Both the position numbers and the translations under genes were made by a program. Shown here piece after piece: positions 2 to 59,003 of a stretch of 64,000 bases of DNA. Source of the DNA: an uncultured Elusimicrobia bacterium. GTDB taxonomy: Bacteria; Elusimicrobiota; Elusimicrobia; Elusimicrobiales; UBA9959. Below the pieces are notes generated by a model. The model saw nothing but the letters and a program-made list of their open reading frames with translations. It had not been told where the DNA came from and ran no database searches. Position 1 is the first letter of the stretch; each line of letters begins with the position of its first letter. The stretch lies in the NCBI GenBank assembly GCA_903873295.1, contig CAIQNV010000143.1, forward strand, positions 15,633 through 79,632, read 5' to 3'.

Positions 2-754
2 GAGGCGGAAATACTTTCCTCGCTGGATTATGTGGTGGGCGGCGAGGAGAAGATGGTTAATATCATAAGCGGGCTAGACGAGACGGTGCAGGAAAAAGCG
101 CTTGCGGCCTTCACCCGCCTCGCCCCCGCCATGTCCAGGAAACTTAATTCCTCCGTTATACGGCTTTCCAGCATTCAGGATATTGAACCCGCGCAGGCCC
201 AGGCGCTTGCCCGCAGGCTGCCCATGCGGGTGCTGGCCGCCGCGCTGAAAGGCTCCCCCTACGCCGAGATCTTCCTTTCTAAGCTGGCCGGCGGTATGCA
301 GGAGCGCTTCCGGCAGGAGCTCGACCTCACCCGCGAGCTGCCCGCCGGGGCTTATAAATCCGAGCGCGCCAAGCTGGTGGAGACGATACGGCAGATGATA
401 AAGGAAGGTTTTATCACGCTTAGGCCTCATGGAGCCCCCGCCCCGGCGCCCGCCCCGGCCTCCGCCGAAACCGGCCCGGCCGGGCTCCCGCCCCCGCCTC
501 CTCCGCCCCATATTAACGCCCTGGAAATACCGCCGGCGCCGGAAAATAATACCGGCCTGGAAGTGCCGCCGCTGCCCGGACTTAGCGCCGGCCCGGAAAT
601 GCCGGCCTCCTCTGAAGTTAAAACCGGCGATGAAATTCCGCCGCCACCGGGACTTGAACCCGGCCCGGCATTGCCGGGCGAAGAGCCGGCGGCAGCCGGC
701 GGCCCCGCCGCCGAGATACTAAACGACCTTAACGCCCGGGAAGCGAAACTCTGA
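2..754 (+). CDS. FliG C-terminal-domain-like protein with proline-rich C-terminal tail (5' partial, frame open to window edge)
   Basis: Frame is open from nt 2. Residues LKGSPYAEIFLSKLAGGMQERFRQELDL...KLVETIRQMIKEGFITL resemble, from memory, the FliG C-terminal (MotA-contacting) domain. The last ~105 aa are Pro-rich with repeated EIPPAP / EVPPLPGL / EIPPPPGLEPGP units. It lies directly upstream of the motA-like gene. Confidence 0.5.
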   Translation, partial: EAEILSSLDYVVGGEEKMVNIISGLDETVQEKALAAFTRLAPAMSRKLNSSVIRLSSIQDIEPAQAQALARRLPMRVLAAALKGSPYAEIFLSKLAGGMQERFRQELDLTRELPAGAYKSERAKLVETIRQMIKEGFITLRPHGAPAPAPAPASAETGPAGLPPPPPPPHINALEIPPAPENNTGLEVPPLPGLSAGPEMPASSEVKTGDEIPPPPGLEPGPALPGEEPAAAGGPAAEILNDLNAREAKL

Positions 755-807
755 CCGCGCCGGGTGAAGAGGTCCGGCACAATATGGCCGGCAAGAGGTA
801 AAATAAA

Positions 808-1584
808 ATGGATCTGATGACATTGTTCGGCGGCGTAATAGGGATAGGGGTCATAGTCTTCGTGCTGTCCGCCGGCGGCATGTTGAGATTCCTTCTTAAC
901 TGGGAAGCTATCGTGCTTATCTTCGGCGGCACTCTGGGCTCGGTGATGATAGCTTACCCCTGGGCGGCGCTTAAGTGGACGAAATCCTCTTTCAAATTAG
1001 TGCTCTTCCCCCCCAAGCGCCCGCCGATAGCGGAACTTATAAAAGCTCTTGTCAGCCTCGCCGAAATAAGCAGGAAGAACGGCGTCGAGTCGATCTCCGG
1101 CGAGCTGCGCAGACTGCCTCACCCGTTCATGACCGACGCCTGCCAGATGATGGTGGACGGCGTGGACATACACATCCTGCGCGAGCGCATGGAGAACGAC
1201 ATCAACACCACCCGCCTGCGCCACCAGCAGCAGACCAACGTCTTCAACTCAGCCGGCACTTTCGCCCCCATCTTCGGCCTGCTGGGCACGCTGATAGGAG
1301 TCGTGCAGGTGCTCAGGAACATCCAGAACCCCCAGATGATGGGCTCCTCCATGGCCATAGCCATGACGGCGTCCTTCTACGGCATCTTCTCGGCCAACTT
1401 CCTTTTCCTGCCTATCGCCAGCAAGCTCGGCTTTTATTCCGACGAGGACATCCTGAGCCGGGAAATAATAGCCAAGGGCGTCCTCTCCGTCTACGAGGGC
1501 GACGTGCCCTGGCTGGTTTCAAAAAAACTCGAAGGCTACCTGTCGCTGGCGCTCAGGCGCAAGGCTAAGGCGACGGCAAAATGA
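808..1584 (+). CDS. motA: MotA/PomA-type proton-channel stator subunit (MotA/TolQ/ExbB family)
   Basis: 258 aa with 4 predicted TM segments. C-terminal channel region FAPIFGLLGTLIGVVQVL...AIAMTASFYGIFSANFLFLPIASKL is typical of MotA/PomA. RBS-like AGAGG lies upstream. The stop overlaps the next start (ATGA at 1581-1584). Confidence 0.8.
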   Translation: MDLMTLFGGVIGIGVIVFVLSAGGMLRFLLNWEAIVLIFGGTLGSVMIAYPWAALKWTKSSFKLVLFPPKRPPIAELIKALVSLAEISRKNGVESISGELRRLPHPFMTDACQMMVDGVDIHILRERMENDINTTRLRHQQQTNVFNSAGTFAPIFGLLGTLIGVVQVLRNIQNPQMMGSSMAIAMTASFYGIFSANFLFLPIASKLGFYSDEDILSREIIAKGVLSVYEGDVPWLVSKKLEGYLSLALRRKAKATAK

Positions 1585-2252
1585 AATTTTTCATAGAGCG
1601 CTACTCAAAGCGCGCCAAGGAGAATCCGCTCTGGCTCGTCGTGCTGTCGGACATCATGACCAACCTCATGCTTTTTTTCCTCATCCTCTACGTCTTCAAC
1701 ATTCAGCCGGAAAGCGAGGCGAAAACCATTTTCATGAGCGGCTTCGACAAGGACAATCCGCAGGCGGTCAGGGAGAAAGCGGCCGACAAGGTCATACAGA
1801 AATTCAACGAGGAAGACGTGGCCAAAAGGCTGGCGGAGGAGCTCAATAAGGCGAACCTGAAAGACCTGGCCGACGTGCAGATAACCGAGAAGCAGATCAA
1901 GGTCAACATCGCGGCGCCGGTGCTTTTCGCCTCCGGCAAGGCGGAGCTCAGCCGGGCTTCGGCCGAGGTGCTGGGCGCGGTGGCCAGGGTCATAAGCAGG
2001 CTGCCCAACGATATCATAGTGGAGGGCCACACCGACAATATCCCGGTCAAGTCCGGCGGCTACGCCACCAACTGGGAGCTCTCGGCCGCGCGCGCCAACG
2101 CGGTGGTGGACCTGCTGGCCAGGAAATGCGGGCTGCCGCAGGAGCGCCTGGTGGCGGCGGCCTATGGCGAGCACCGCCCGGCGGCCTCCAACGATACGCC
2201 GGAAGGCCGGGCGCGCAACCGCAGGATAGAGATAATAGTGTCACGAAAATGA
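1581..2252 (+). CDS. motB: MotB-like stator subunit with OmpA-type peptidoglycan-binding domain
   Basis: N-terminal TM with conserved Asp (WLVVLSDIMTNLMLFFLILYVF). C-terminal OmpA_C-like domain (IIVEGHTDNIP...NWELSAARANAV...NRRIEI). ATGA overlap on both sides. Confidence 0.8.
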   Translation: MKFFIERYSKRAKENPLWLVVLSDIMTNLMLFFLILYVFNIQPESEAKTIFMSGFDKDNPQAVREKAADKVIQKFNEEDVAKRLAEELNKANLKDLADVQITEKQIKVNIAAPVLFASGKAELSRASAEVLGAVARVISRLPNDIIVEGHTDNIPVKSGGYATNWELSAARANAVVDLLARKCGLPQERLVAAAYGEHRPAASNDTPEGRARNRRIEIIVSRK

Positions 2253-2887
2253 GCGCAAAAGATCACTCCCAGCTCTGGATGGTGCCCTTCGCGGATTTGA
2301 TGTCCTGCCTGGTCATCCTTTTCCTTTCGCTGTACGTTTTTTCCTTCAATATGAAGAAGTCCGACTATGAGATCGCCATCGCGAACCTGCAGAAGGAGCT
2401 GGGCGTGAAAAACGCGGACAAAAAAATAGCGGAGCTGGAAGCCACCAAACAGGTGGAGAACGATTTGAAGAAGCAGATAGATGAAGGCAGCCTGGGCATG
2501 GAGATCACCACCTCGCGGATAAAGCTTACCTTCTCTTCCCCTATTCTTTTCGATTCCGGCTCCGCCCGGCTGAAGGACTCCGCGAAGGAGGTGCTGGACC
2601 CGGTGGCGGTCAGCCTGCTGAAAATGAACAACATGGTTATAGTGGAGGGCCATACCGACTCCGCCAGGATGCTGGGCCACAAGTTCGCTTCGAACCGGGA
2701 GCTCTCCATCATGAGGGCCTTTTCCGTGATAAGCTACCTGCTGAAAAAGGGAGTGCAGCCGGCCCGCATCTCGGCTTTCGGCTACGGCGAATTCCGCCCG
2801 GCCGCGCAGAACGACACCGAAGCTAACCGCTTTAAGAACCGCAGGATAGAGATGATAATAATGCGGCAGTCGGAAGGGAACTTATGA
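2249..2887 (+). CDS. Second MotB-like/OmpA-domain protein (paralogue)
   Basis: Start chosen at the internal ATG 2249 (MSAKDHSQLWMVPFADLMSCLVILFLSLYVF), which overlaps the upstream stop as ATGA. TM segment with Asp. OmpA-like domain (VIVEGHTDSA...NRELSIMRAFSV...NRRIEM). The tracked ORF start at 2126 is a spurious 5' extension over motB. Confidence 0.75.
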   Translation: MSAKDHSQLWMVPFADLMSCLVILFLSLYVFSFNMKKSDYEIAIANLQKELGVKNADKKIAELEATKQVENDLKKQIDEGSLGMEITTSRIKLTFSSPILFDSGSARLKDSAKEVLDPVAVSLLKMNNMVIVEGHTDSARMLGHKFASNRELSIMRAFSVISYLLKKGVQPARISAFGYGEFRPAAQNDTEANRFKNRRIEMIIMRQSEGNL

Positions 2888-3840
2888 GAATTTGCGTCCT
2901 GCTCCCGGCGCTGTTCCTCTGCTGCGCTCCCGCCGCCCGCGCGCAGGGCGGCGCGAGGGCGGAGAGCGCCGAGATAAAAGAATATTACGACAGAGCTTTC
3001 GCCTACTATGTCTCGGGCGACTACCCCAGGGCCATAGAGCATTGGAACCTGGTGCTGCACGCCGATCCCAAGCAGACCACCGCGCGCGACATGATAGAGG
3101 ACGCCCGCAAAAAAATGGCCAGGGCCGCGGTAACGCTCAAAAGCTCCTTCACCCGCCTGCTGGAAAAGTGCCGCTACGCGGACGCGCTTATCAAACTCGA
3201 GGAGCTGCTGGCCGCCGACCCCACGAACCCGTATTACCTTAAGCTCCAGGGCAAACTGCGCAGGATCTCCGCGCTGGCCCCGGTCAAACCGTCCGCTACA
3301 AAAGCCTGGAACGTCGCCTCGGAGGGCATCACCGCCTGGCTGGACGAGAAAGAGGACCTGCTCTTCGCCTATGACGCGCTGCGCTACGCTTCGGAGCTGG
3401 ACCCCTCGGATAAGGTTTTCGGCAGGCTCACCGCCGCGCTGGAGGAGGAGGCTCCCCATTTGAAGCTTAACGACACCAAGCCGGAAAACTCCGGCGTGCT
3501 GGAGCACAAGAAAGAGATGGCGCTGCACCAGATCTACGATTCGAAGTTTTACCTGGCGGTGAAGGAGCTGGAGGGGGTGCTCAGGCTGGAGCCGGACGAC
3601 GTGACCGCCCTGAAGCGCTCAGGCTCGGCCTATCTGCAGCTTAAGGATTACCCCCAGGCCAGGCTCGCCTGGCAGAAAGCTTTGAAGATCGCCCCCGGCG
3701 ACGAGCAGCTTAAAGAATATCTCGAAGCGCTGGAAAAAGCGGCCCCGGCTGAAGCCGCAAGGCCTAAACACCGGCCCGCCAGACAAAGAAAAAAGAAGAC
3801 CCGAGTTTCCCCCGGCCCTGAGGGCCGACCCGACCTATAA
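2884..3840 (+). CDS. Secreted TPR-repeat protein
   Basis: Signal-peptide-like N-terminus (MRICVLLPALFLCCAPAARAQG). TPR-like units (YYDRAFAYYVSGDYPRAIEHWNLVLHADP; SGSAYLQLKDYPQARLAWQKALKIAP). Basic tail. ATGA overlap with the upstream gene. Confidence 0.7.
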   Translation: MRICVLLPALFLCCAPAARAQGGARAESAEIKEYYDRAFAYYVSGDYPRAIEHWNLVLHADPKQTTARDMIEDARKKMARAAVTLKSSFTRLLEKCRYADALIKLEELLAADPTNPYYLKLQGKLRRISALAPVKPSATKAWNVASEGITAWLDEKEDLLFAYDALRYASELDPSDKVFGRLTAALEEEAPHLKLNDTKPENSGVLEHKKEMALHQIYDSKFYLAVKELEGVLRLEPDDVTALKRSGSAYLQLKDYPQARLAWQKALKIAPGDEQLKEYLEALEKAAPAEAARPKHRPARQRKKKTRVSPGPEGRPDL

Positions 3841-3856
3841 GATCGCCCCGTAAAAA

Positions 3857-3880
3857 CGGCGGCCCGGTTCCGGGCCGCCG
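3857..3880 (-). terminator. Intrinsic terminator hairpin for the minus-strand gene 3914..4579
   Basis: Perfect 11-bp GC stem CGGCGGCCCGG / CCGGGCCGCCG. It is followed by a T5 run on the minus strand (AAAAA at 3852-3856 on the plus strand). Confidence 0.55.
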
Positions 3881-3913
3881 TCAATATCGGACTGCGGATA
3901 ACAATACGGACCG

Positions 3914-4579
3914 TCAGGGCTGGGTTTTGACGACCAGGCTCTGGGCGTCATAGGAAATATCGCGGACCTTCCAGGTGAAGTCCCTGCCGTAGCGCGAAAT
4001 ATCCATGGCCTGCCACTGCGCGTTGTAGCCTATCAGTTCAGGCTTAGCGCCGCGCACGGCCCATTCCAGGCGCTGCGTCGAATTCTCGATATCGAACTGG
4101 GCGCGGTTAAGGAGGGTGCGGGCGTCCATGTCGATATTGCGGGCTATCCCGTTCAGCCCCTGGTCTTTCTGCGCGAGGTTAAGCAGATTTTTGACGTCCA
4201 TTCCCAGCCGCTGCGCGCCGCTGTTATAGCCGTTAAGTTTCCAGGCCATGTTCTGCAGATCGTTCTGGAAGAAGGGGTCGGAGCTGCCGGTCTGCGCTAT
4301 GCGGCGCGCGGTGCTTTCAAGACGATCGAGGTCGGAGCGCAGCCAGGTGGTATCGCTCTCCAATCTCCAGAGATCGTTCTTAACCTGGTTGAACTTGCTG
4401 ACGAGGTCCTGCGGCACCTGAGCCGTCTCTTTTGCCGGCGCGGCGGGAACAGGCACGGCGGCGGCCCCGGCCCCGACGGCGAGATCCGCGGCTTTCATAG
4501 CGGCGAGAGAGGAGAAGTCAGCGGAGAAAACCGGAGACACTAAGGAAACCAGCACGGCCGCAAGCATTGTTTTTTTCAT
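3914..4579 (-). CDS. Secreted hypothetical protein (coiled-coil-like)
   Basis: Signal peptide MKKTMLAAVLVSLVSPVFSA. No motif I recognise. Good GC3 coding bias. Terminator downstream. Confidence 0.6.
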   Translation of the reverse strand: MKKTMLAAVLVSLVSPVFSADFSSLAAMKAADLAVGAGAAAVPVPAAPAKETAQVPQDLVSKFNQVKNDLWRLESDTTWLRSDLDRLESTARRIAQTGSSDPFFQNDLQNMAWKLNGYNSGAQRLGMDVKNLLNLAQKDQGLNGIARNIDMDARTLLNRAQFDIENSTQRLEWAVRGAKPELIGYNAQWQAMDISRYGRDFTWKVRDISYDAQSLVVKTQP

Positions 4580-4691: not shown

Positions 4692-7181
4692 CTACAGATC
4701 GAGGCGCAGAACGGCCAGCGAGAGCGGCTCTACCTCGAAAGTGCCCGTAACGGGAGCCCCCGGCTCCTTTATCAGCCCTATGGAGTCGAACGCCTCCAGC
4801 CAGTTCCCTTCGGGAAGGATGAATTTGCGCGGAGTTTTCTCAGGATTCACCAGCACCACTATGCGCCGCCAGCTGTCGCCGGCCTTGTCGCCGTAAAGCA
4901 GGTAGGCTATGCCCGGGGGCGCTACTTTCAGGCCCAGCTCTTCGTAGAACTTGAGGTTTTCCCTGACTTCCGGCGCGGTCTTCATGCGGAAAGCCGGGTG
5001 GGCCCTGCGCAGGGCTATCAGGTCCCTGTAGTAGGAGTAGACGGAGAATTTTTCCTTCTTGCGCGTCCAGTCCAGCCGGTTTATCTCGTCGGGCAGGTTA
5101 TAGGAATTTTCCTCCCCCTTCTTGGTGCGCAGGAATTCTTCGCCGGCCTGCAGGAAGGGGATCCCCTGCGAGGTGAGGACCAGCGCGTTGGCCAGTTTAT
5201 CCATGGCGACTTTATTGGGCAGCGGCTCGTCCTTGACCGACAGCTCGATGCGGTCCCATAAGGTATGGTTGTCGTGGCTGGAGACGTAATTCACGGTTTC
5301 CAGCGGCCCGTCGGTGAAGTCGTCCACCGAGCCCCGTATGCCGCGCAGCACGCCCTCCCGGTTGCGGGCGGCCTGCACGTAGCCCAGATCCGCCAGCGAG
5401 AACACGCTGCCCTTGATGGCGTCGCGGAACCCGTCGTTGAACACGGCGAAGCCCTGAGAGCGCTGGCTGCCTTTTTTTACGCCTTTTACCGGGGAGGAGC
5501 CCGCCGTCCAGGGCTCGCCGTAAATAAAGATATCCGGCTTTTCCAGCTTGAGCGCGCGCACTAGCTCCGCCGCCGTGCCGGTGTCGATGAGGCCCATCAG
5601 GTCGAAGCGGAACCCGTCCACCCTGTATTCGCGCACCCAGTGCAGCAGGCTGTCCAGCAGGAACTTGCGCGCCATGGGCGCTTCGGTCCTGAACTCGTTG
5701 CCGCAGCCGGAGCCGTTGGAATACGTGCCGTCGGCGTTGAGCCGGTAATAGTAGTCGGCGGCCGCCGCGTTGAAGTTATAGGTGGTGGCGCGCGTCTCGG
5801 CCGTGTGGTTGTAGACCACGTCCATTATGACCTTGAGCCCCTTGCGGTGAAAGGCGTCTATCATCTGCTTCGTCTCGCGCACCCGGGAGCCGTCGGCGGG
5901 GTTCGTAGCGTAGGAGCCCTCGGGAGAATTGAAGTTGACCGGCATATAGCCCCAGTTGTAAGAGGAAGTGCTGTCGCCGTTCTCAAAGTCCTGGAAGGGC
6001 AGGAGATGCACGGCGTTGACGCCGAGCTCGGCGATATGGTCCAGCCCCGTCGTTATGGCCGGGAACCGCGGATGGCGCGTGCCGCTCTCGGCGGCGCCCA
6101 GGTACTTCCCTTTGTTTTTCACTCCGGAAAACTCGTCCATGGTGAGGTCGCGCAAATGCACTTCGTAAACCACGGTCTCCGAGGCGTCGAAAGAGGGCCC
6201 GGGGGAAACAGGCGTTTCATCCTTTAATATCAGGGCTTTACCCCCCTCGCCGGTGACGCAGGCCGCGTAGGGATCAAGCCCCTCGTAAACTTTCCCGTTC
6301 TGCTCGGTCCGCAGCCGGTAAGATTTCCCCTCCAGCGACTCTCCGAATTTCTTTTCCCAGACGCCGCCGGGCTTGCTTCCCAGGAGGTGCACATAGGGCT
6401 GCGCGCCGGGGAAGTCGTAAACCAGCGCCTCCGCCTTTACCGCGTAAGGCGCGAAAACGCGCAGGACCGACCGCCCTTTTTCGGACGTCATCCCCATAGC
6501 GAGCGGACTATAGAACTCCGGCCCGTAGACCGCCCCGCCCAGCCGCAGCGCGACGGGCTCGAAGCCGGCGGAGGACAATTTATATTCTCCGGCGTTCAGG
6601 GCCTTATAATCGGGCTCGAAACCGCTGAAGACCAGCAGGGCCGCGCGCGAGTAGGCGCCGCCGACGGGCGCGACGGAAGCGGGCTTAAGTATTTCACCGC
6701 CGCGGCTGAGGTAAAAGCCCTGGGCGTCCAGGAAAGCGGCGGGGAGCGGGCGGGTGAAAGTTACGCGCACCTCTCCGGCCCCGTCCAGCCAGGCGCCGGT
6801 CACGGCGGTGGAGATCTCGGGCGGGGCGGAGTAGACCTTGCCGTCGCCTTCAAGCAGATATACTTCGCCCTGGCGGGCCGCGGCCAGTATCTTGTCCGGG
6901 GCGTCTTTATTAGTCCAGTTCCCCTGGCGCGGCAGGAAGCCGGTTTTTTTCCCGGACAGGCCTGAGGCGTCCAGGTCCAGCTCGAAAAACACGCCGAAGG
7001 GGTCGCTCCCCGACGGGGCAAGCTCGAGCCCCGGCGTCTTTTCCGCGTCGTTCCAGACCCAGAGGTTCCAGCCGGAGTAGACTTTATCCTGGCGGCTGTA
7101 ATGGATCACAAGTTTGTCCGCTCCGAAAACCTGCTGCGGCATAAGCATCGCTCCCAGTAAAAAGAGTTTCAGAAATTTCAT
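4692..7181 (-). CDS. pulA: Type I pullulanase (GH13)
   Basis: Signal peptide. Carries the YNWGY(M/D)P signature (YNWGYMPVNF) and GH13 conserved regions DVVYNHT, GFRFDLMG, YGEPW and YVSSHDN. Confidence 0.9.
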   Translation of the reverse strand: MKFLKLFLLGAMLMPQQVFGADKLVIHYSRQDKVYSGWNLWVWNDAEKTPGLELAPSGSDPFGVFFELDLDASGLSGKKTGFLPRQGNWTNKDAPDKILAAARQGEVYLLEGDGKVYSAPPEISTAVTGAWLDGAGEVRVTFTRPLPAAFLDAQGFYLSRGGEILKPASVAPVGGAYSRAALLVFSGFEPDYKALNAGEYKLSSAGFEPVALRLGGAVYGPEFYSPLAMGMTSEKGRSVLRVFAPYAVKAEALVYDFPGAQPYVHLLGSKPGGVWEKKFGESLEGKSYRLRTEQNGKVYEGLDPYAACVTGEGGKALILKDETPVSPGPSFDASETVVYEVHLRDLTMDEFSGVKNKGKYLGAAESGTRHPRFPAITTGLDHIAELGVNAVHLLPFQDFENGDSTSSYNWGYMPVNFNSPEGSYATNPADGSRVRETKQMIDAFHRKGLKVIMDVVYNHTAETRATTYNFNAAAADYYYRLNADGTYSNGSGCGNEFRTEAPMARKFLLDSLLHWVREYRVDGFRFDLMGLIDTGTAAELVRALKLEKPDIFIYGEPWTAGSSPVKGVKKGSQRSQGFAVFNDGFRDAIKGSVFSLADLGYVQAARNREGVLRGIRGSVDDFTDGPLETVNYVSSHDNHTLWDRIELSVKDEPLPNKVAMDKLANALVLTSQGIPFLQAGEEFLRTKKGEENSYNLPDEINRLDWTRKKEKFSVYSYYRDLIALRRAHPAFRMKTAPEVRENLKFYEELGLKVAPPGIAYLLYGDKAGDSWRRIVVLVNPEKTPRKFILPEGNWLEAFDSIGLIKEPGAPVTGTFEVEPLSLAVLRLDL

Positions 7182-7218
7182 GTCGAACCCCCTTCAGCCT
7201 CCTTAAATTGTAAAATAT

Positions 7219-8346
7219 ATGCCTATGCTTCATACAGCGTTATTTTTACTTCTTGCTTCTCACTGCTCCGCTTCCGACGGCGTTCAGGCCGCCACTGAAA
7301 CCGCCAGGATACAAATTTCCACTTCGGCGATCAGGGAGCTGGTCCTGGCCGGCCGCAGGGTGCGCGGCATACATCTGACCTGCTGGAGCGCCGGCTCCGC
7401 CAAGAGCAGGAAGGAACTGCTCAATAAGATCTCGGATTCCGTTATCAACACCGTGGTGATAGCCGTTAAGGAAACCGACGGCAGGGTTTACATCCCCGGC
7501 GTGGAAAAGGCGCACAAGTTCGGCTCCTACCAGGGGGCGATAAGCGACCCCGGGGCCATGCTGAAAGATTTCAAAGGGGCGGGCCTTTATACCGTGGCCC
7601 GCATAGTGGTTTTTAAGGACACGATGCTGCCCGGAATCCGGCAGGACCTGGCTGTAAAGACTCCGGGCGGCGACCTCTGGCGCAGCCGCAACGGGGCGGT
7701 CTGGCTCGACCCCTACAACAGGGAGGTCTGGGACTATACGCTCGACATAGCCGAGCGCGCTGCCAAGCTGGGTTTTGAGGAAATACAGTTCGACTACATC
7801 CGCTACCCGTCCGAGGGGAACACCTCGCTTTGCCGCTACTCGAAGCCCCACAACAGGCATACGGCGGTAAACAATCTCAGGGACTTCCTGGACTACGCGG
7901 CGAAGCGCCTCGCCCCGTACAAGGTTAAGATCTCGGCGGACGTGTTCGGCCTTACCACCTCGGTAAAGGACGACATGGGCATCGGCCAGGACATAAAGAC
8001 GCTGGCGGCCGGCGCCGATTACGTCTATCCCATGATGTACCCGTCGCATTACGCCGCCGGCGAGTATAACATTAAGAATCCCAACGGCAGCCCCTTCAAG
8101 GTGATCAACCGGGGTCTCAAGGACGCCATGGAAAAGCTCGGCCCGGACTACGCCAAGCTGCGCCCCTATCTGCAGGATTTTTCGCTGGGCTGGAAATACG
8201 GCCCCTCGGAAGTGCGCGCGCAACTGATGGCCGCGCATCTGAATTTACTTGAGAGCTGGGTGCTCTGGAACCCCGCGAACAAATATACCTGGTCCGCCCT
8301 CACGCCGCAGTTCTACCGGGCCTTCGTGGACCCGGAATATAAATAA
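7219..8346 (+). CDS. Putative glycoside-hydrolase-like TIM-barrel protein (COG1306/DUF4015-like)
   Basis: Signal peptide. Pattern RGIHLTCWSAGS...INTVVIAVKETDGRVYIP...EEIQFDYIRYP matches my recollection of DUF4015-type putative glycosyl hydrolases. Divergent from the pullulanase gene. Confidence 0.6.
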   Translation: MPMLHTALFLLLASHCSASDGVQAATETARIQISTSAIRELVLAGRRVRGIHLTCWSAGSAKSRKELLNKISDSVINTVVIAVKETDGRVYIPGVEKAHKFGSYQGAISDPGAMLKDFKGAGLYTVARIVVFKDTMLPGIRQDLAVKTPGGDLWRSRNGAVWLDPYNREVWDYTLDIAERAAKLGFEEIQFDYIRYPSEGNTSLCRYSKPHNRHTAVNNLRDFLDYAAKRLAPYKVKISADVFGLTTSVKDDMGIGQDIKTLAAGADYVYPMMYPSHYAAGEYNIKNPNGSPFKVINRGLKDAMEKLGPDYAKLRPYLQDFSLGWKYGPSEVRAQLMAAHLNLLESWVLWNPANKYTWSALTPQFYRAFVDPEYK

Positions 8347-8362
8347 GGATTATCTTTCTTTG

Positions 8363-8391
8363 AAAAAAAGACCGGGAAGTCCCGGTTTTTT
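8363..8391. terminator. Bidirectional intrinsic terminator
   Basis: AAAAAAA-GACCGGG-aagt-CCCGGT-TTTTTT immediately after the stop of 7219..8346. Confidence 0.7.
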
Positions 8392-8414
8392 CAATGAATA
8401 GAACTCAACGCTTG

Positions 8415-13838: not shown

Positions 13839-14489
13839 TCAGCGCAGGACTTTGAGCACGCCCATGAAATCGGCCGGCGGGTCGGCCTCTGCCGACATGG
13901 TCTTGCCGGCGAGGTCGGTGAATCTCAGCCGCCACGAATGCAGCATCAGGCGGGGATATTTGGACTGCTTCGCCGCCTCGCCGTAAAGACTGTCGCCCAG
14001 CACCGGATTGCCGATGGAATACAGGTGAGCCCTGATCTGGTGGCGCCGCCCGGTCACGATGGAAACCTCCAGGAGCGTGGCGCCGCGCAGCCTTTCCATA
14101 ACCGAGTATTTAGTGAGCGAGCGCTTGCCGTCAAAGGCCACCGACATGCGCCCCGACCCGCGCTGCTTAAGCGGCTTGTCTATTTCCCCCCGGTCCTCCG
14201 CCACTTTCCCCTCCGCTACCACCAGGTATTTTTTCTCTATCGCGCGCGTCTCGAAAAGCCCGGAATAATAGCGGTGCGCCTCCGGCGTGCGGGCGAAAAG
14301 TATCAGGCCGCTGGCGTCCCGGTCCAGGCGGTGCGTGATGAAAACGCTGCCGAAGCGCTGGTGCAGCAGCCCCACCAGGTGCTTTTCCTTCGCCAGGCCG
14401 CCGCGCGCCGGCATAGTGAGCAGGCCCGACGGCTTGTTTACCAGCAGGAGCTCGGGAGTTTCGCGGATAATTTCGAGTTCGTTCTTCAT
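13839..14489 (-). CDS. RluA-family pseudouridine synthase
   Basis: Catalytic motif HRLDRDASGLILFA and GRRHQIRAHL. Confidence 0.85.
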   Translation of the reverse strand: MKNELEIIRETPELLLVNKPSGLLTMPARGGLAKEKHLVGLLHQRFGSVFITHRLDRDASGLILFARTPEAHRYYSGLFETRAIEKKYLVVAEGKVAEDRGEIDKPLKQRGSGRMSVAFDGKRSLTKYSVMERLRGATLLEVSIVTGRRHQIRAHLYSIGNPVLGDSLYGEAAKQSKYPRLMLHSWRLRFTDLAGKTMSAEADPPADFMGVLKVLR

Positions 14490-15703
14490 ACGGCGTGGAA
14501 ATCCTTTTTATAAGCTTCTCCCGCCAGGATGGACGTAACCCCGCCCAGCAGCAGATAGAGCATGGCCAGGAACATGGCCACCGGCAGCCCGGCCGAATCG
14601 GAAACCACGCCCAGCAGGAAAGGCGAAATGGCGTCGCCGAGCGCGTGTATCATGAAAATGTTCAGGGCGAAAGCCATGGAGCGCATAGTGACCGGAACCG
14701 TTTCCACGATGGCGGCGTGGTAGGGGCCGGAGTAGGCGAAGATGAAGAACTCGGCGAAGAACATCAGCGCCAGGCAGGCGTTCAGGCTGTCGGCCAGCAC
14801 CGCCGACACACCGAAAGGAACGCTCAGGAAGAAGCTTATATAGCCTACGATAAAATAGGCCCTTTTAGTCCGCTTATGCAGCCAGTCCGCCGCCCACCCC
14901 CCGCCGAAACTTCCGGCCAGGCCGGCCAGCACAGTGACGAGGCCGAAGAGGAAGCCGGCCCTGGCCACGGAAACGTCGAAGGTCCTCACGAAATAAGACG
15001 GCATCCAGGCCGCCAGCCCGCCCACGGAAAACGTGCCGATGGACTGCGACAGGCAGATCAGCAGATAGGTGCGGTTCTTCAGCAGGGCCGCGTACCCCTT
15101 GAGCGGGATATGCTCCGAACGCCGGAGCTTCTCGGGCGTCTCCTTAAGAAAGAGCGCCGTTGCCCCCAGCAGCATGCCGGGCACCGCGACTATAAAAAAA
15201 GCGTTGCGCCAGCCGAAATGCTGGCCCAGAAAGCCTCCTATCAGGTAGCCGACGGCGCTCCCGGCCGGGATGGCGAGGGCGTAAAGCGCCATGACGCGCG
15301 CCCGCCGCTCCTTGGGGAACCACTCGGCCAGGTATGACGGGGAAACGGTGCCGTAACCGGCCTCCCCGACGCCTACCGCCGAGCGGGTAAAGATGAGCTG
15401 GCCGTAGCTCCGGATCAGGCCGCTGAAAAGCGTGGAGATGCTCCAGAAAACGGCGCTTACGCCTATTATCAGCGGCCGGCGCACTCTGTCGCCGAAATAG
15501 CCGACAAAAGGCGCGAAGCACATATAAACTATCATGAACGACGAGGCCAGGAAACCGAGCTCGGCGTCGCTGAGCCGCAGGTCGGCTTTTATAAGAGGAA
15601 AAACGGCGAAGAGCACCTGCCGGTCTATATAATTGAAAAGGCTGAGACCGAAAATAAGGATCAGCACTTTGCGCGGATAGGTAAGGGTCTTCATTGCCAC
15701 CAT
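14486..15703 (-). CDS. MFS transporter
   Basis: ~12 TM segments. MFS loop motif GYFGDRVRRP. 4-nt overlap with the downstream gene. Confidence 0.8.
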   Translation of the reverse strand: MVAMKTLTYPRKVLILIFGLSLFNYIDRQVLFAVFPLIKADLRLSDAELGFLASSFMIVYMCFAPFVGYFGDRVRRPLIIGVSAVFWSISTLFSGLIRSYGQLIFTRSAVGVGEAGYGTVSPSYLAEWFPKERRARVMALYALAIPAGSAVGYLIGGFLGQHFGWRNAFFIVAVPGMLLGATALFLKETPEKLRRSEHIPLKGYAALLKNRTYLLICLSQSIGTFSVGGLAAWMPSYFVRTFDVSVARAGFLFGLVTVLAGLAGSFGGGWAADWLHKRTKRAYFIVGYISFFLSVPFGVSAVLADSLNACLALMFFAEFFIFAYSGPYHAAIVETVPVTMRSMAFALNIFMIHALGDAISPFLLGVVSDSAGLPVAMFLAMLYLLLGGVTSILAGEAYKKDFHAV

Positions 15704-17550: not shown

Positions 17551-19128
17551 ATGAAAGTCATAATCTTTAATATTTTTATCCTTATAGCCTTTAGCGGCGG
17601 CGCCCGGGCGCAGTCGCTCGACAAGCTGGCCGGAAAGCTGGCCGCGGGCCTCGGAGACCGCCCGTCCATAAAGCTGGCCGTGCTGGAGTTCCCCTACACC
17701 GGCGGGAAAGCCTCCGAAGGGCCCGTGGTGGTGCAGGAACGGCTTACCACGGCCCTCGCCCAGAATAAAAAGATAACCCTGATAGAGAGGGGCCTGTTAA
17801 AAAAAGTGATGGGAGAGCTGAACCTCCAGTCCTCCGGGGCTATAGACGAGGAGACCGTAAAAAAATTGGGAAAACTCCTGGGCGCCGACGCTATCGTGAC
17901 CGGCACCCTTAACGATCTTAAAGAGAACCAGACGGAAATAAACGCCCGCATCGTCGAGACCGAAACCGCCAAAATACTGGCCGCGGCCGCGCTCTCCGTA
18001 AAAAAGACCTGGAAGGATTCTTCCCAGGTGAGCGTAACCCCTCCGGTAAATCCCCCCCCCCAGAATTTCGGCTCTAAGCCGCTGGTCCAGGTGGCGGTGC
18101 TGCTTGACACCTCGAACTCGATGGACGGCCTGATAAACCAGGCCCGGACCCAGATCTGGAAAATAGTGAACGAGCTCGTTTCCGCCGAGAAAAGCGGCTC
18201 GAAGCCCGCGATAGAGGTGGCGCTTTACGAATACGGCAATTCCGCGCTTTCAAGAGAAACCGGCTGGCTGCGCCTGATAGTGCCTTTTACCACGGACCTG
18301 GACCTGGTCGCCCGCGAGCTCTTCGCGCTGAGGACCAACGGCGGGGACGAGTACTGCGGCCAGGTTATAAGCGCGGCGTTAAGCGGACTTAACTGGAGCC
18401 CTAAAGCGGACGTTTACAAGGCCATATTTATAGCCGGCAACGAACCTTTTACCCAGGGTCCGGTAAGCTTTCAGGAGGCGGTCCTTAAAGCAAAAGAAAA
18501 AAGCATCTTCGTAAACACGATCTATTGCGGCTCGCGCCAGCAGGGCCTGGCCGAGCAGTGGAAAGCCGGCGCGGACCTGGCCGAAGGCGATTACGCCAAT
18601 ATCGACCAGTCCGCCCAGAATTACGCCGTCGCCGCGCCGCAGGACGACAAGATCTCCCAGCTCAGCGCCAGCCTTAACGACACTTACGTCGCCTATGGCT
18701 CGGGAGCCGGCGGCAGAATGGCCGCCAAGATGGAAATGGATACCATGATGAAAAGCGCCGGCGCCTCCGTTATGGCCGAGCGCGCGGCTTTCAAGGCGGC
18801 GGCTCCGTCGGCCACCGCGTCCGAGTCCTCGTGGGACGTCGTCTCGGCCATAGAGAGCGGCTCCCTGAAGAAAGAGAATATAAAGACCGACCAGCTCCCG
18901 GAAGAACTCAAAAAAATGGATAAGCCGGCTCTCAACAGCTATATAGACGGGAAGCTGGCCGAGCGTAAAAAGATCAAAGATGAGATAACAAGGCTGCAGA
19001 CGGAGCGCAAAACATATATAGCGCTGGAAGAAAAAAAGAAAAATTCCGGCGCCTCCACGCTGGATAAGGCCATGATAAACACCATACGCCGGCAGGCTGC
19101 CCTGCGCGGCTACAAGTTCGCGCCATAA
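17551..19128 (+). CDS. Secreted vWA-domain protein with LpoB/FlgO/CsgG-like N-terminal domain and C-terminal coiled coil
   Basis: Signal peptide. VAVLEFPY...ITLIERGLLKKVMGEL...ADAIVTGTL (FlgO/LpoB-like). MIDAS-like VAVLLDTSNSMDG. Lys/Glu-rich C-terminus. Confidence 0.7.
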   Translation: MKVIIFNIFILIAFSGGARAQSLDKLAGKLAAGLGDRPSIKLAVLEFPYTGGKASEGPVVVQERLTTALAQNKKITLIERGLLKKVMGELNLQSSGAIDEETVKKLGKLLGADAIVTGTLNDLKENQTEINARIVETETAKILAAAALSVKKTWKDSSQVSVTPPVNPPPQNFGSKPLVQVAVLLDTSNSMDGLINQARTQIWKIVNELVSAEKSGSKPAIEVALYEYGNSALSRETGWLRLIVPFTTDLDLVARELFALRTNGGDEYCGQVISAALSGLNWSPKADVYKAIFIAGNEPFTQGPVSFQEAVLKAKEKSIFVNTIYCGSRQQGLAEQWKAGADLAEGDYANIDQSAQNYAVAAPQDDKISQLSASLNDTYVAYGSGAGGRMAAKMEMDTMMKSAGASVMAERAAFKAAAPSATASESSWDVVSAIESGSLKKENIKTDQLPEELKKMDKPALNSYIDGKLAERKKIKDEITRLQTERKTYIALEEKKKNSGASTLDKAMINTIRRQAALRGYKFAP

Positions 19129-27216: not shown

Positions 27217-28323
27217 CTACCACATGAAATAAACTTCGCTGGGCACTTTTTCAGCTTTCTTTTTTTCTTTCCCGGCCGCTTTCTTTTTTTCTTTCACGCT
27301 CACTTTCTTTTTTTCCGCTTTTCCGGGCGCCTTAGGGTCAGGCGCCGGAGCCGCCTGTTTTTTAAGGAGCGGCTTCGGCAGACCGACGTAAGGCTGTCTC
27401 TTGAATTCCTCAGGGCGCGGCTCGCCGAACCTTAAAGCCACGGTCACCCTGTGCGCGTCGCCCAGCTCTCCGTACGGGGCGAAGGCGTAATCCACGCTCA
27501 GATCCCTGCTCATAAGCCCGATCCCGGCCGTATAGCCGGGGCCGGCGTAGCGGCTGCGCCCGGTCTTGTAGCCGGCCCGCAGGAAAAAGAATTCCTTAGG
27601 TCCGGCCTGCAGGCGCCCCTCCGCTCCCAGCGCTGCGGCCGTGCCGGAACTCCCGGCCTTTATCCCGTCGACCGAGAGCGTGAAATTATCGAGGAAGCTC
27701 CGGGAAACCCCCGCCCTGAGGATCAGCGGCGGAGCGAAACTGCGGGAGCCGAATTTAAGCCTGCCGCCGAAATTAGCCGCGGCGGCGCCTAGCCTCCAGC
27801 CGTCATAAACCTTTAAAAGCCCGGCGTCCCCGGCCCAGGCCATAGCCTTCCGTCCCGCGGCCTGCTGCGACAAGGCCTTCACCGCCGCCCCGCCGTAATA
27901 GCCGCTTCCGAAGCCGCCCGCAAGCCCGGCGGAAACAGCGCCCTCCATGGAATTGAACGCGCCTGTCCTGTCTCCGACAGCGTCGTACTTGTTCATACTG
28001 CCGCTGAAAAGCGCGTTAATGCCGCCGAAAACCGTCAGGCTTTCGCCAAGGGGATGCACATAGGCCAGGGTTTCATTGCGTATCCCCTCCAGCCACTCGT
28101 TGTGGCCCAGCAGTATTTCCTTTTTTTTAACGAGGGCCGTCCCGGCCGGATTATAAAACACGCTAAGCGCGTCGCCGCCCGCGGCGCAGTAGGCGCCGGA
28201 AAGGGCCGCGCCGCGCGCCCCGGCGTCCAGCTTAAGAAAAGGCAAAGCGTCGCTCCCCGCTCCCCCCCAGGCGGAGGGGAGGGCGGAAAAGAGCAGGATC
28301 AAAAGCGCGGCGGTTCTTTCCAT
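27217..28323 (-). CDS. PorV/PorQ-like (UPF0164-like) outer-membrane beta-barrel protein with Lys-rich C-terminal extension
   Basis: Start taken at ATG 28323 (MERTAALLILLFSALPSAWG), 1 nt after the upstream stop. N-terminal block ALPFLKLDAGARGAALSGAY...DALSVFYNPAG resembles PorV/PorQ-family proteins. The tracked start at 28431 overlaps the upstream gene. Confidence 0.6.
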   Translation of the reverse strand: MERTAALLILLFSALPSAWGGAGSDALPFLKLDAGARGAALSGAYCAAGGDALSVFYNPAGTALVKKKEILLGHNEWLEGIRNETLAYVHPLGESLTVFGGINALFSGSMNKYDAVGDRTGAFNSMEGAVSAGLAGGFGSGYYGGAAVKALSQQAAGRKAMAWAGDAGLLKVYDGWRLGAAAANFGGRLKFGSRSFAPPLILRAGVSRSFLDNFTLSVDGIKAGSSGTAAALGAEGRLQAGPKEFFFLRAGYKTGRSRYAGPGYTAGIGLMSRDLSVDYAFAPYGELGDAHRVTVALRFGEPRPEEFKRQPYVGLPKPLLKKQAAPAPDPKAPGKAEKKKVSVKEKKKAAGKEKKKAEKVPSEVYFMW

Positions 28324-28324
28324 A

Positions 28325-32703: not shown

Positions 32704-35700
32704 CTACTTCACGTTCAGGGTGATGCCTGACGAATGGGCGGCGAACTCGGGGGCGTACATCGACTGGATCACCGCCGCCCCGGCCTTGAAAGTGCCCGGC
32801 GTCGTCGGGCGCAGGCGGTACTTCAGCACATACTCGCCGTGCGGCAGCCACTCCATGAAGAAGTTGGTCAGCGAATCCCGCGGCTCCTCGTAGCGCCCCA
32901 GCTGGTCCCAGTGCCAGCCGCTGGTCAGCGTCTCCGCCTCGAAACCCGCGGCCTTGGGATCCTTCAGGTGCACATACTCGAACTGGCTGCGCGTGTTCAC
33001 CGTCAGGTGCACCTCTACCTGGTCGCCCACCGCCACCGTAGCGCCGTCGGCAAGAGGCTTCAGAATATAATCCTCCCCCTCTTTTACACGCAGGAAATAT
33101 TTCCTGGAAACATTCATCATCCCCGCCGGAGATTCTTCCGCGGTCTTATCCGTGGTATAGATCCCGGTAAAAGCCGCGAAGGCCAGCCCCGGGCCCTTCT
33201 TCCCGATCTCGGGCGCCAGGTCCTTGCTGGTGATCTCCGACCCGTATTTTGACCAGCGCAGCGGCTTCGCCACCCAGTCGAAAGGCTGCAGCTCGAAGGC
33301 CTCCGCCGTATCCCCCCATTTAAGTCCGTAGCTCTCCGGCTTGTCCAGAGCGCCCTTACCCTTCATCACGTCCAGCAGCGAATAGATAGCCGCCGCCGAG
33401 GCCTTTGTGGATTTCCACTCATTGGCCTTGCGGTTGAAAAGCAGCCAGCGCACCATGCCCGCGATCTTGGGATCCTTCGGACGCACCGCCAGCAGCGTCC
33501 TGAGGAGGAAAGCGTGCTTCTCCACCGTGTCGTTATACCAGAGCCAGGAGATCTTCTCCGGCGTCCAGTAAACTCCCGCGATATCGTCGGAGCGCGCCCC
33601 GTCCATCGCCCGGGCCAGATAGCTTTCCGCCTTCGCCCTCTCGCCCAGCCTCAGATAGACATAGGCGGCGTAAGCCTTGCCGAAGGCCGTCATCGCATCA
33701 GAATGCTTGTCGGCGTAATCCGCCCAGACCTTGGCGTAGGTCAGCGCGGTTTTGCTCTCCGGCCAGGACGCCGGGAACGAGGTGACGACATAGGCCGCGT
33801 AAAGGATAAGCGAAGTCTGGTCCTCCTCAGGCTTCATATGCGCCGGGATCTCGCCCAGCACATAAGCCAGCGCTTTCCTCGCCGTGTCCTGCGGGATGTC
33901 CACCCCGTAGCGCGAGGCTTCGCCAAGGCCCTCCAGCACATAAAGCGTCATGTAGAGGTTAGGATGGCCGCCCGGGAACCAGGGGAAGGATCCGTCGGAA
34001 GATTGATAAGCCTTCAGCTTGGCCAAGGCGTCCTCCTTTTCCCCCGCCACCAGCTTCGGGTCCAGCATGTCCACTACAGGAAGAGAGGAGCGGCGGCCTT
34101 TAGACTCCTGCTCCCAGGGGGTCTCCATCAGACTCATCAGCCGCACCGGGTTGTCGCGCTCCCACTCCGGCGTGAGCGTGGTCCGCTTCGGGATCTTCGC
34201 CACGGAGGCGCGCAGCTCCGGGTATTTGTTATAGAAGCTGTTGGTGATGGCCAGCGGCACATACCGGTTAAGCAGCTGCTCGGTGCACTCATACGGGTAA
34301 TGCACCAGGAAAGGCAGGCTGTTAAGCACCGTCAGGATCAGCTGCGGCTGGATCTCCAGGTGGAGCGCTTCCACCTCCCGCGTTGGGTCCGCGGACTCAA
34401 GCTCGGGCAGCCTGAAGGTTTTGGAAGCATTCCCGTCGAGAGAAGCTACGCCGGAGGCGATCAGCCGCTCCCTGGAGGGCAGCACCGGCAGGTCGTTCTC
34501 CTGCGCGTCGGCGAGCGCCCCCGCGCGGGCCACGGCGCGCACCTTGTAGGCAGCGACGCCCCGCGGCGCTTCAATTTCCCAATATACAGAAACCGTGCCT
34601 TTGGGCTTAACGGTAAAAGGCCGCGACAGCTCTTTAAGGCTGAACTTTTCGTGGGCGGCCGCGCCGTCCAGCGTTACGGACAGCGCCACTTCACCCGAAA
34701 GCTCCACGGCGGTATCGTTGGTAATTACTGCGGTCAGCCGGGACCTGTCGCCCTCGCGGAAGAACCTCGGAATATCCAGCCGCACCATCAGGTCCTTTTT
34801 GGTAACGGTCTCGGCGCTGAAAGAGCCGCGCCGCGCGCTTCGGGTGAGCAGGTAGGAACTTATCTTCCACGACGTAAGCCGCTCGGGTATTTTGAAAGAG
34901 AACTTCCCTTCGCCTTTGAAGACCTTAAGCTGCGGATTATAGTAAGCCGTCTCGGAGAAATCCGTGCGCGTTTTAACTTCGGGCTCGGCGCTGGAAGCAG
35001 CCTTCCCCGGGGCCATTTCGGACTTATCTTTCCTGCTTGTATCTCTTATCATGGACTGTGAAGGCGCGGCGGCAGGGGCGCTCATCTCGGCCATATTTGA
35101 CCCGCCGGCCAGGCTCGCGTCAGCCATCCCCAGGCTTTCGCCTTCGAAAGCCAGGCCTTTGGCAAAGCCCCTGGCCGCGCCCATGAAGCCCCCCCGGCCG
35201 TAAAGCCTTGAGGCGCCGACGCGCAGCGAGGCCAGACGCTCCTCGGCGACGGACAGCCTGAAGGCGTCCATCATGCGCTGTATGAGCCCGGTGCGTATGG
35301 GCAGCCCCACCGCGTAGGGGGTGAACAGCGAGCCCCAACCTTCCCCTGAGGAGCGCCTCGCCGGATAAAGAGCGTCGCCCCAGAACCCGGCATCGCGGCC
35401 GTAATATTCCAGGGACCTGTCGAATATTTTTACCAGCGCCTCGCCGGAGGCGGGCCTGCCGGCGGAATCCTTCGCCCTCAGCAGCCAGGAAGCCGTCTGT
35501 CCCGGCGCCAGCGCTTTGTCATAGTCGAGCGAAAGCGAAATGGTCTTATCTTTAAGCGGAACCTCCGCCCCGTCCATGGCGGAATAAACCTTAAAATCTC
35601 CGGCCCCGAGCCAGCGCAGGGCGAAACCGCCGCGATGCGCGCCTCCCACCTTCAGACTTAAGATGGAAAGGCCGCCGTCCTGCAGGGTCTCGCGGGAAAG

Positions 35701-52479: not shown

Positions 52480-52499
52480 AAGCCGGGCGCCCGGACGCA

Positions 52500-52533: not shown

Positions 52534-52544
52534 GTTTTCACCGT

Positions 52545-58960: not shown

Positions 58961-59003
58961 AATTATAATACTAAATCCGCAACGATACCTGTAGAGTTAA
59001 TGC

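Follow-up and report, generated by a model that had tools for sequence, protein, structure and literature searches.

A natural FliF–FliG fusion encoded with a flagellar-type stator in Elusimicrobiota: a candidate non-flagellar torque generator with a likely outer-membrane partner

The stretch of DNA analysed here, 64,000 nt of contig CAIQNV010000143.1 from an uncultured Elusimicrobia bacterium (hereafter the window), carries at positions 2–3840 a cassette of five co-directional open reading frames (ORFs), numbered g1 to g5 along the plus strand. As judged from its sequence and that of its relatives, the product of the first gene is a natural fusion, in which the C-terminal half of FliF (the RBM3 domain and the transmembrane helix TM2) is joined to a FliG without its N domain. 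It is encoded together with a flagellar-type MotA, two different MotB proteins and a secreted TPR protein. On balance, we favour the reading that the operon specifies a self-contained torque generator of the flagellar kind, which serves no flagellum and is tied to the outer membrane. The elements of the cassette are as follows.

2–754, plus strand: g1, open at its 5′ end at the window edge, with its stop codon at 752–754; covers the last part of FliG_M, the ‘Gly-Gly’ linker (VGGE), FliG_C and a Pro-rich tail
122–421, plus strand: FliG_C domain of g1 (Pfam match; fragment residues 41–140), with LAGGMQERFRQELDL as its counterpart of the torque helix
425–751, plus strand: Pro-rich tail of g1, 109 aa with 27.5% Pro; low complexity, rich in Pro, Ala, Gly and Glu
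808–1584, plus strand: g2, motA, 258 aa; stator A subunit of flagellar type
1581–2252, plus strand: g3, motB1, 223 aa; Asp24 in its transmembrane helix, and an OmpA-like domain for peptidoglycan binding
2249–2887, plus strand: g4, motB2, 212 aa; transmembrane helix with Asp16 and an OmpA-like domain
2884–3840, plus strand: g5, TPR protein, 318 aa; secreted, periplasmic, with a signal peptidase I type site A-x-A↓Q
3856–3881, no strand: hairpin, a perfect, GC-rich 12-bp inverted repeat between g5 and a convergent minus-strand gene for a 221-aa protein

The last four genes are joined by ATGA start/stop overlaps at 1581–1584 (g2/g3), 2249–2252 (g3/g4) and 2884–2887 (g4/g5), while g1 and g2 are separated by 53 nt that include an AAGAGG ribosome-binding site. 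An initial annotation, made by reading the window without database searches, had described five co-directional genes coupled in this way, and the ORF analysis returned exactly the same overlap positions. The identities it had proposed for the last four products, a MotA, two MotB and a secreted TPR protein, are borne out by Pfam: MotA_ExbB is found in g2 (83.6 bits), MotB_plug (about 30 bits) together with OmpA (74 and 70 bits) in each of g3 and g4, and TPR repeats, preceded by an N-terminal signal peptide, in g5. The g1 product matches FliG_C with 36.6 bits (E = 5.8e-9; cut-off 23.3). The hairpin at 3856–3881 folds as RNA with −32.7 kcal/mol (z = −3.6; repeat search and folding) and probably forms the 3′ boundary of the operon as a bidirectional terminator; a scan for consensus promoters and terminators gave nothing above background and did not flag it.

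In a scan of one genome per GTDB species, 51 loci were found, all of them in Elusimicrobia/Elusimicrobiota genomes or in unclassified metagenome-assembled genomes (MAGs) of similar sequence. The order fusion gene–motA–motB1–motB2–TPR is the same in every locus with enough flanking sequence (about 45), including lineages in which the fusion protein is only 27–46% identical, and it was seen on further metagenomic contigs. Co-occurrence of the five genes, which the initial annotation had named as something to check, is thus conserved across Elusimicrobiota, and because the identical order recurs in so many loci the arrangement is not due to chance.

The window encodes residues 311–560, and the stop codon, of the first protein. 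Its missing 5′ part was recovered in P0030, a 560-aa protein whose C-terminus is identical to the translation of g1; P0030 and P0253, the latter 100% identical to the g5 product, lie on one 107,646-bp contig. Given the exact C-terminal identity and the shared contig, P0030 is the window's own complete g1 protein, with the architecture FliF(RBM3)–transmembrane helix–FliG(MC). In the related locus L001 the fusion ORF is longer than annotated, by about 800 bp on its upstream side, and has a product of 506 aa; used as a query, this ORF retrieved 97 full-length homologs of about 500 aa. Homologs of the g1 fragment came only from Elusimicrobia MAGs. The order of elements along the fusion protein is a signal peptide, a periplasmic domain of about 135 aa, one transmembrane helix, a disordered linker, a conserved ‘PPFWF’ motif with about 200 aa following it, and a hypervariable Pro/Ala-rich tail. 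Sequence comparison indicates that the protein is without RBM1 and RBM2, without FliG_N and without the EHPQ motif that binds FliM.

The tail beyond the FliG_C-like domain, first put at about 105 aa, measures 109 aa (30 Pro, 19 Ala, 12 Gly, 12 Glu). It has a predicted local distance difference test (pLDDT) score below 50 in the predicted structure, and both its length and its sequence are hypervariable between orthologs. Since the tail follows the cytoplasmic FliG_C and the protein has no hydrophobic segment after its single transmembrane helix, the tail is placed in the cytoplasm. Some relatives have a TPR or IPT/TIG domain instead of the tail. In one ortholog, P0090 (601 aa), an IPT/TIG-like domain comes after the Pro-rich tail, which is unexpected in a region placed in the cytoplasm by topology.

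The FliG-like part is the better supported half of the fusion. A profile of the family aligned with the middle and C-terminal domains of T. maritima FliG (1LKV) with E = 2.8e-28, starting from the equivalent ‘KPFSF’ motif. In a Foldseek search with the predicted model, FliG_MC structures ranked first (E = 2e-7). The C-terminal subdomain of the model superposes on MotAB-bound FliG_C (8ucs_H) with a root-mean-square deviation (rmsd) of 1.9 Å and a template modelling score (TM-score) of 0.74, and fold matches to 8ucs_H and 1qc7 score 0.72–0.75. FliG_M and the linker are present in the fusion family, the VGGE of the Gly-Gly linker being nearly invariant; in distant members Pfam FliG_M is significant, and FliG_M plus FliG_C reach up to 110 bits alongside YscJ_FliF_C. 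The FliG_C similarity noticed in the initial annotation is thereby upheld by profile searches, and it extends to FliG_M as well. The NCBIfam equivalog model for FliG, TIGR00207, gives 19 bits against a cut-off of 226.7. No independent FliG_N region was found, as the transmembrane helix and the disordered linker directly precede FliG_M and Pfam FliG_N matches only on the FliG_M repeat. FliG_N normally binds FliF, which is covalently linked here, and would for that reason be dispensable. In the torque helix, the position of E. coli D288 is Gln in the window protein and Gln or Glu in the family, the position of D289 is an invariant Glu, and no conservation is seen at the position of R297.

The periplasmic domain of about 135 aa has, in the predicted model, the α-β-β-α-β topology of an RBM, with an insertion between the first two strands, where RBM3 of FliF has its β-collar; the insertion is short and poorly predicted. 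Searched by itself with Foldseek, the domain model had hardly any matches other than FliF RBM3/S-ring structures (E = 3e-4 to 2e-2, probability 1.0), and it also matches RBM2 of PrgK, an inner-ring protein of type III secretion systems (T3SS; TM-score 0.73, 2.3 Å). Distant family members pass the cut-off of Pfam YscJ_FliF_C over the whole profile. Compared with FliF, the protein has the RBM3/S-ring domain and the TM2 that follows it, and is short of the roughly 550 aa that FliF has ahead of its C-terminal tail. Only one RBM is found in the periplasmic part; RBM1 and RBM2, which form the FliF inner ring around the export gate and house it, are not present.

On the stator side, the g2 product aligns end to end with Paenibacillus flagellar MotA (9lu9; E = 9.4e-52, residues 1–246) and with Vibrio PomA (8bri; E = 2.7e-40, residues 1–248). 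NCBIfam models of flagellar MotA, PomA and MotP score it at 173–190 bits, below their equivalog cut-offs of 237–394, and the TolQ model at 18.6 bits (cut-off 221). It has the four transmembrane helices, the expanded cytoplasmic torque-generating domain, the rotor-contact charges and the two prolines of a MotA. Residues R89, K90 and E99 align with the rotor-contact charges R88, K89 and E96 of PomA. Of 46 orthologs, 45 have a basic residue at position 89, 45 have one at position 90, and 38 have an acidic one at position 99; the prolines of the channel, P154 and P202, are kept in 45–46/46. The far higher scores to flagellar MotA than to TolQ/ExbB suggest that the protein belongs to the flagellar-type stator (FIT) clade.

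MotB1 matches C. sporogenes MotB (6ysf_A) with E = 3e-30. Of 46 orthologs, 42 have its D24 and all have its NRR motif; of 42 orthologs of MotB2, 40 have D16 and 41–42 the T-D, N, S and RR motifs. The two proteins are about 38% identical to each other, and both have the channel Asp in an N-terminal transmembrane helix, the plug region and the C-terminal OmpA-like peptidoglycan-binding domain that characterize MotB and PomB, with the motifs N..LS..RA and NRR conserved. The residues of the MotB transmembrane helices permit no assignment of H+ versus Na+ specificity. Since both paralogs are encoded in every locus, and in the window are translationally coupled to motA, the stator is probably a MotA5:MotB1:MotB2 heteromer containing a MotB heterodimer.

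The link to the outer membrane comes from the TPR protein. The signal peptide of g5 is conserved in orthologs; a Cys is not. Directly upstream of the Elusimicrobiales cassettes lies a divergent gene, here called up1, which was found in 36 loci and scores 97.6 bits on the NCBIfam PorV/PorQ model NF033709 (cut-off 90), placing it in the PorV/PorQ barrel family of type IX secretion systems (T9SS). In four distant lineages (L051/L058, L055, L056 and L057) a protein of about 530 aa is encoded directly upstream of the fusion gene. With custom hidden Markov models (HMMs), its N-terminal ~320 aa match up1 (E = 1e-15 to 1e-21) and its C-terminal ~215 aa match g5 (E = 1e-26 to 1e-45); the N-terminal half of this barrel–TPR protein gives 81 bits on NF033709 (E = 1e-22), below the cut-off. 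The joining of both in one polypeptide is a Rosetta-stone argument that the TPR protein works with a PorV/PorQ-type barrel, and the partner of g5 is likely to be such a barrel, encoded by a separate gene in the lineage of the window. In the closest relative with genomic context, a 345-aa gene occupies the up1 position and the genes downstream of it match those of the window.

A second neighbour, dn1, encodes a 637-aa predicted outer-membrane β-barrel ending in ...YNYSF, with no family in Pfam or NCBIfam. It is found beside the cassette in about 30 relatives and is conserved even at 27–42% identity. The dn1 genes of two loci, and the gene that stands in place of dn1 in the window, are:

L001, 13866–15776, minus strand: dn1, with orthologs in about 30 loci
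L048, 7994–9859, plus strand: dn1, directly upstream of the cassette on the same strand
Window, 3914–4579, minus strand: secreted protein of 221 aa, which follows the cassette instead of dn1 in the window, L009 and L012

Three further observations concern the surroundings of the fusion genes. First, there is a second fusion subfamily in which a C-terminal TPR domain replaces the Pro-rich tail, and whose genes stand beside those of very large proteins and not motAB; no motAB was found within 10 kb of its two representatives:

L055, 10001–12019, and L056, 10001–11905 (strand not given): second-subfamily fusion genes, with a PorV-like-barrel–TPR gene before them and, after them, genes for very large proteins without a Pfam family (830, 1604 and 1118 aa)

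The L056 locus also encodes, upstream, a protein of 17,141 aa; close to the L055 one there is a Roadblock/LC7 gene. Second, in L057 the gene next after motB2 is for a MerR-plus-receiver response regulator (14096–14737), and ahead of the cassette lies a histidine kinase/response regulator pair (6480–8408); in some lineages the motor may accordingly be under two-component control. Third, the window itself contains a PorV/PorQ barrel at 27220–28431 on the minus strand (NF033709, 120 bits), beside an 857-aa protein (28328–30898, minus strand) with a C-terminal CHU_C/FlgD_ig domain, a T9SS-style cargo signal. T9SS-like shuttle/cargo pairs also occur near the motor cassette in L055 and L057, in a phylum outside the Bacteroidota.

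Taken as a machine, the cassette could work as follows. The fusion protein would oligomerise into a ring in the inner membrane; as FliG is covalently attached, FliF and FliG would be present at 1:1 and FliG_N would not be needed. Pentamers of MotA around a MotB1/MotB2 pair would form ion-conducting stator units, which the OmpA-like domains of the MotB proteins would anchor to the peptidoglycan. Ion flow by way of the conserved Asp would turn MotA against the FliG_C domains and so drive the ring, with no FliM/FliN switch, type III export gate, rod, hook or filament in the machine. The periplasmic TPR protein would connect it to a PorV/PorQ-family barrel in the outer membrane, which the work might reach through the periplasmic RBM ring, the TPR protein or both. 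The output would probably be a process of the outer membrane or the cell surface, for example the movement, secretion or anchoring of surface proteins. More tentatively, we would regard the whole as a possible undescribed envelope machine, made up of a FliF-RBM3/FliG ring, MotA–MotB1–MotB2 stators, a TPR adaptor and PorV/PorQ barrels, that moves, secretes or anchors surface proteins. The initial annotation had proposed a 5:2-type ion-driven motor coupled to a FliG_C-like adaptor and serving something other than a flagellum. The central idea is supported; what has to be revised is the role of the first protein, which carries rotor-ring parts of both FliF and FliG and is not merely an adaptor.

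Several points weigh against a rotary motor with an outer-membrane output. Kinship with FliF is weaker and indirect, resting on the predicted fold and on transitive homology: the window's own protein scores 12.6 bits on YscJ_FliF_C, which is sub-threshold, and a sequence profile of the periplasmic domain gave no significant FliF match in the PDB (E = 1.6). In the alignment with T. maritima FliG, Gly stands throughout the family where E. coli has R281. In the subfamily of the window the EHPQ motif is replaced by R-P-x-E, and the MFXF hinge is lost as well, although distant subfamilies keep IFxF. The loss of EHPQ fits with the finding of no FliM or FliN in the scanned regions; with the Arg to Gly change and the loss of hinge and EHPQ taken together, the torque interface may work differently from that of flagella. 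On the side of the outer membrane, the up1 position lies just outside the 5′ edge of the window, so the PorV/PorQ-like partner gene is not in the window, and the dn1 HMM found no copy in the window or in the most distant lineages, which rules out dn1 as a universal component of the cassette. Finally, the absence of a flagellum from the source genome is a reported one, based on the literature and on local context (see below).

These same losses suit a reading in which the proteins do not rotate continuously. Ion flow would push individual fusion molecules or small oligomers, and the system would act as a switch or force transducer driven by the proton-motive force, with the logic of ExbBD–TonB or GldLM, to gate, position or energise a PorV/PorQ-like protein. 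The missing torque-helix Arg, and the missing hinge and EHPQ motif in the window subfamily, would be expected of such a device; the same is true of the single RBM with a short, poorly predicted insertion instead of a long β-collar, and of the two distinct MotB proteins, which recall AglQ and AglS of the Agl gliding motor with its non-rotary output. The supported outer-membrane partner (the barrel–TPR fusions and the PorV/PorQ scores) would serve it equally. We nevertheless think this version rather unlikely, while giving it real weight. RBM domains are ring-building modules in every structural match, MotA keeps its full flagellar cytoplasmic domain and charges, and FliG_M, FliG_C and the Gly-Gly linker, the parts that build the FliG ring, are all retained.

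As the core proteins are all homologous to parts of the flagellar motor, the cassette might instead be an accessory or second stator–rotor set for a flagellum encoded elsewhere in the genome. The surroundings make this improbable. Pfam scans of 43 further ORFs of the window (3.9–63.8 kb) found no flagellar genes, in keeping with the initial annotation; the only matches with flagellar names were to generic domains, a FlgD_ig/CHU_C Ig-like domain in the 857-aa protein and a LpoB/CsgG/FlgO-like fold in a VWA protein. None were found in the gene tables of seven related loci (±10 kb) and one DNA-less contig. A canonical FliG in a flagellar cluster upstream, which would have spoken for an ordinary flagellar origin, was not encountered either: the upstream part of g1 is the fusion, and the upstream genes of relatives, a PorV/PorQ-like outer-membrane protein, ispA and dxs, rule out such a cluster. 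The fusion protein also lacks RBM1/RBM2, FliG_N and EHPQ. According to one report, no Elusimicrobiota genome contains flagellar machinery and isolates are non-motile (PMC11257099); another notes that free-living Elusimicrobiota have motAB and fliG homologs without structural flagellar proteins, and calls the role of these homologs unclear (bioRxiv 10.1101/2022.07.08.499144). Our searches of the available literature found this passing remark on motAB/fliG in Elusimicrobiota, and nothing that describes the fusion protein, the cassette or the outer-membrane link.

A non-flagellated phylum (PMC11257099) and a diverged FliG-like part (36 bits on FliG_C) could also be expected of a functionless, decaying relic of a lost flagellum. 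This is very improbable in view of the conservation of the locus. All ORFs are intact and translationally coupled, the functional residues are kept, and the cassette persists across lineages with fusion proteins only 27% identical. A family profile search returned 237 clusters (at 50% identity) with E ≤ 1e-30, mostly as full-length matches; an expansion to more than 200 clusters does not suit a relic, and all sampled clusters that carry a source name are from Elusimicrobiota. In 21 genomes compared with L001, median identities were 84.6% for MotA, 81.2% for DXS, 77.2% for IspA, about 74% for MotB1 and MotB2, and 66–67% for the fusion and TPR proteins. MotA thus evolves more slowly than the essential enzyme DXS, from which comparison the cassette is judged to be under strong purifying selection, a state incompatible with decay.

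No more credible is a Tol-Pal- or TonB-like system, in which the Pro-rich tail would span the periplasm like TolA and the TPR protein would be the equivalent of CpoB. The initial annotation had drawn this analogy from the layout, and the operon does have a Pro-rich region and, as its last product, a TPR protein; elusimicrobial TolA is reported to be Pro-rich, and a separate tol-pal locus has been reported in Elusimicrobia (PMC12204202). The analogy fails on domain scores and on topology and is rejected. The tail lies downstream of the cytoplasmic FliG_C with no further transmembrane helix and therefore cannot span the periplasm; MotA scores 18.6 bits as TolQ against 190 bits as flagellar MotA; the B subunits are of the MotB_plug+OmpA type, with a sub-threshold 15.7 bits for ExbD/TolR; the CpoB model (tol_pal_ybgF) gives 17 bits for a cut-off of 90; and the cassette contains no TolB, Pal or TolA. 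Least probable of all is a Zorya-like anti-phage defence built on MotAB homologs. MotB1 and MotB2 match the PADLOC ZorB models (E = 1e-22 to 1e-25), which reflects generic MotB/OmpA homology. PADLOC gave no match for MotA, for the fusion or for the TPR protein, the long tail of ZorA and ZorC/D/E are missing, and in dozens of genomes the cassette keeps one place on the chromosome, next to dxs and ispA, unlike a variable defence island; this reading, too, is rejected.

The remaining features of the window touch on other functions. No tRNA was found in it, and its only riboswitch is of the cobalamin type, upstream of a btuFCD-like ABC importer.

4695–8343 and 50011–55023, strand not given: alpha-glucan (glycogen/starch) genes, comprising pullulanase, DUF4015, two GH57 (one a branching enzyme) and DUF4912
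17551–19125, plus strand: 525-aa protein with a CsgG/LpoB/FlgO-like N-terminal fold and a VWA domain; the ‘FlgO’ match is a shared fold and no evidence of a flagellar gene
32707–38685, minus strand: bacterial alpha-2-macroglobulin of 1993 aa, with MG2, A2M and bMG10 domains
57982–58806, 57057–57992 and 56317–57090, strand not given: Peripla_BP_2, FecCD and ABC ATPase of the btuFCD-like importer, by domain matches
58862–58995, minus strand: cobalamin riboswitch, 38.2 bits
62216–63799, minus strand: two adjacent RcpC/CpaB-like proteins, by domain matches; probably marginal genes of a Tad/Flp pilus cluster extending past the window

Comparison with known systems places the favoured reading, a flagellar-type torque generator without a flagellum, closest to the core of the flagellar motor. 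Homologous parts are the RBM3/S-ring-like domain of FliF and its transmembrane helix, FliG_M and FliG_C with the Gly-Gly linker, a four-helix MotA with the full cytoplasmic domain, rotor-contact residues and two prolines, and, in MotB, the channel Asp, the plug region and the OmpA-like anchor. The cassette differs in that FliF and FliG are one polypeptide; in the absence of RBM1, RBM2, FliG_N and EHPQ and the change of the torque-helix Arg to Gly; in having no FliM/N, export apparatus, rod, hook or filament; in its two MotB paralogs per MotA; in its periplasmic TPR and PorV/PorQ partners; and in a host phylum reported to be non-flagellated and non-motile. Engineered FliF–FliG fusions are reportedly functional in Salmonella, where they are said to assemble and rotate. 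The 945-aa chain of PDB entries 8z4d and 8z4g, named FliF–FliG (flagellar M-ring protein, motor switch protein FliG), is presumably, by its molecule name, a fusion of this kind. These constructs share the covalent 1:1 link, but they join full-length FliF to full-length FliG (945 aa), whereas the protein described here is natural, 500–560 aa long, and consists of RBM3, transmembrane helix and FliG_MC only.

Among motors coupled to the outer membrane, the GldLM (PorLM) motor of the T9SS in Bacteroidota is likewise a 5:2-type ion motor in the inner membrane tied to PorV/PorQ-family barrels, and genes for PorV-like proteins and for cargo with the C-terminal domain (CTD) type of signal lie near several of the Elusimicrobiota loci. 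The motor here differs in being built of flagellar-type MotA/MotB and FliF–FliG and not of GldL/GldM, and the proposed link to the barrel draws on gene fusion and neighbourhood. No GldL/M (PorL/M), GldK/N, SprA/Sov or PorU was found in the scanned neighbourhoods, and no genome-wide inventory was made. PflA and PflB of Campylobacterota and FlcA of spirochaetes are periplasmic TPR scaffolds of high-torque flagellar motors. They resemble the present case in pairing MotB-type stators with a periplasmic TPR protein, which is encoded together with them and presumably sits around them, and differ in that the TPR domain here has its homolog in the C-terminal half of the PorV/PorQ-barrel fusions. Tol-Pal with CpoB resembles the cassette in that its motor is of the MotA/TolQ superfamily, an OmpA-like domain binds peptidoglycan, and the operon ends with a TPR protein; it departs from the cassette in domain families and topology, as discussed above. 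AglRQS of Myxococcus, which is counted among the 5:2 motors (PMC12204202), is likewise a non-flagellar motor in which one A-type subunit is encoded together with two B-type subunits that differ from each other. However, AglR belongs to the generic ion transporter (GIT) group and has a condensed cytoplasmic domain, and the B subunits of this group are without the plug and linker and the OmpA-related domain (PMC12505986). AglRQS also has no FliG-like partner.

If the favoured reading is correct, a conserved rotor–stator module operates without a flagellum across a whole phylum, and the torque generator is useful on its own. All well-studied FliG–MotAB pairs that we know of drive flagella. In the published classification of stators the FIT clade is treated as flagellum-specific, as opposed to the GIT group (PMC12505986); on the sequence evidence assembled here, the cassette is an exception to that rule. 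It would also offer structural biology and biophysics a natural minimal rotor, made of one polypeptide and having neither a switch nor an export gate nor a rod. The finding bears on the evolution of the flagellar motor, in which the rotor–stator pair may have existed before the export and axial parts or have survived after them: the cassette would be either the product of repurposing after the loss of a flagellum or a surviving relative that predates the export and axial apparatus, depending on how MotA and FliG branch. It may further reveal a new way of delivering ion-motive energy from the inner membrane to PorV/PorQ-type proteins of the outer membrane, and it would account for the ‘enigmatic’ motAB and fliG genes of Elusimicrobiota genomes (bioRxiv 10.1101/2022.07.08.499144).

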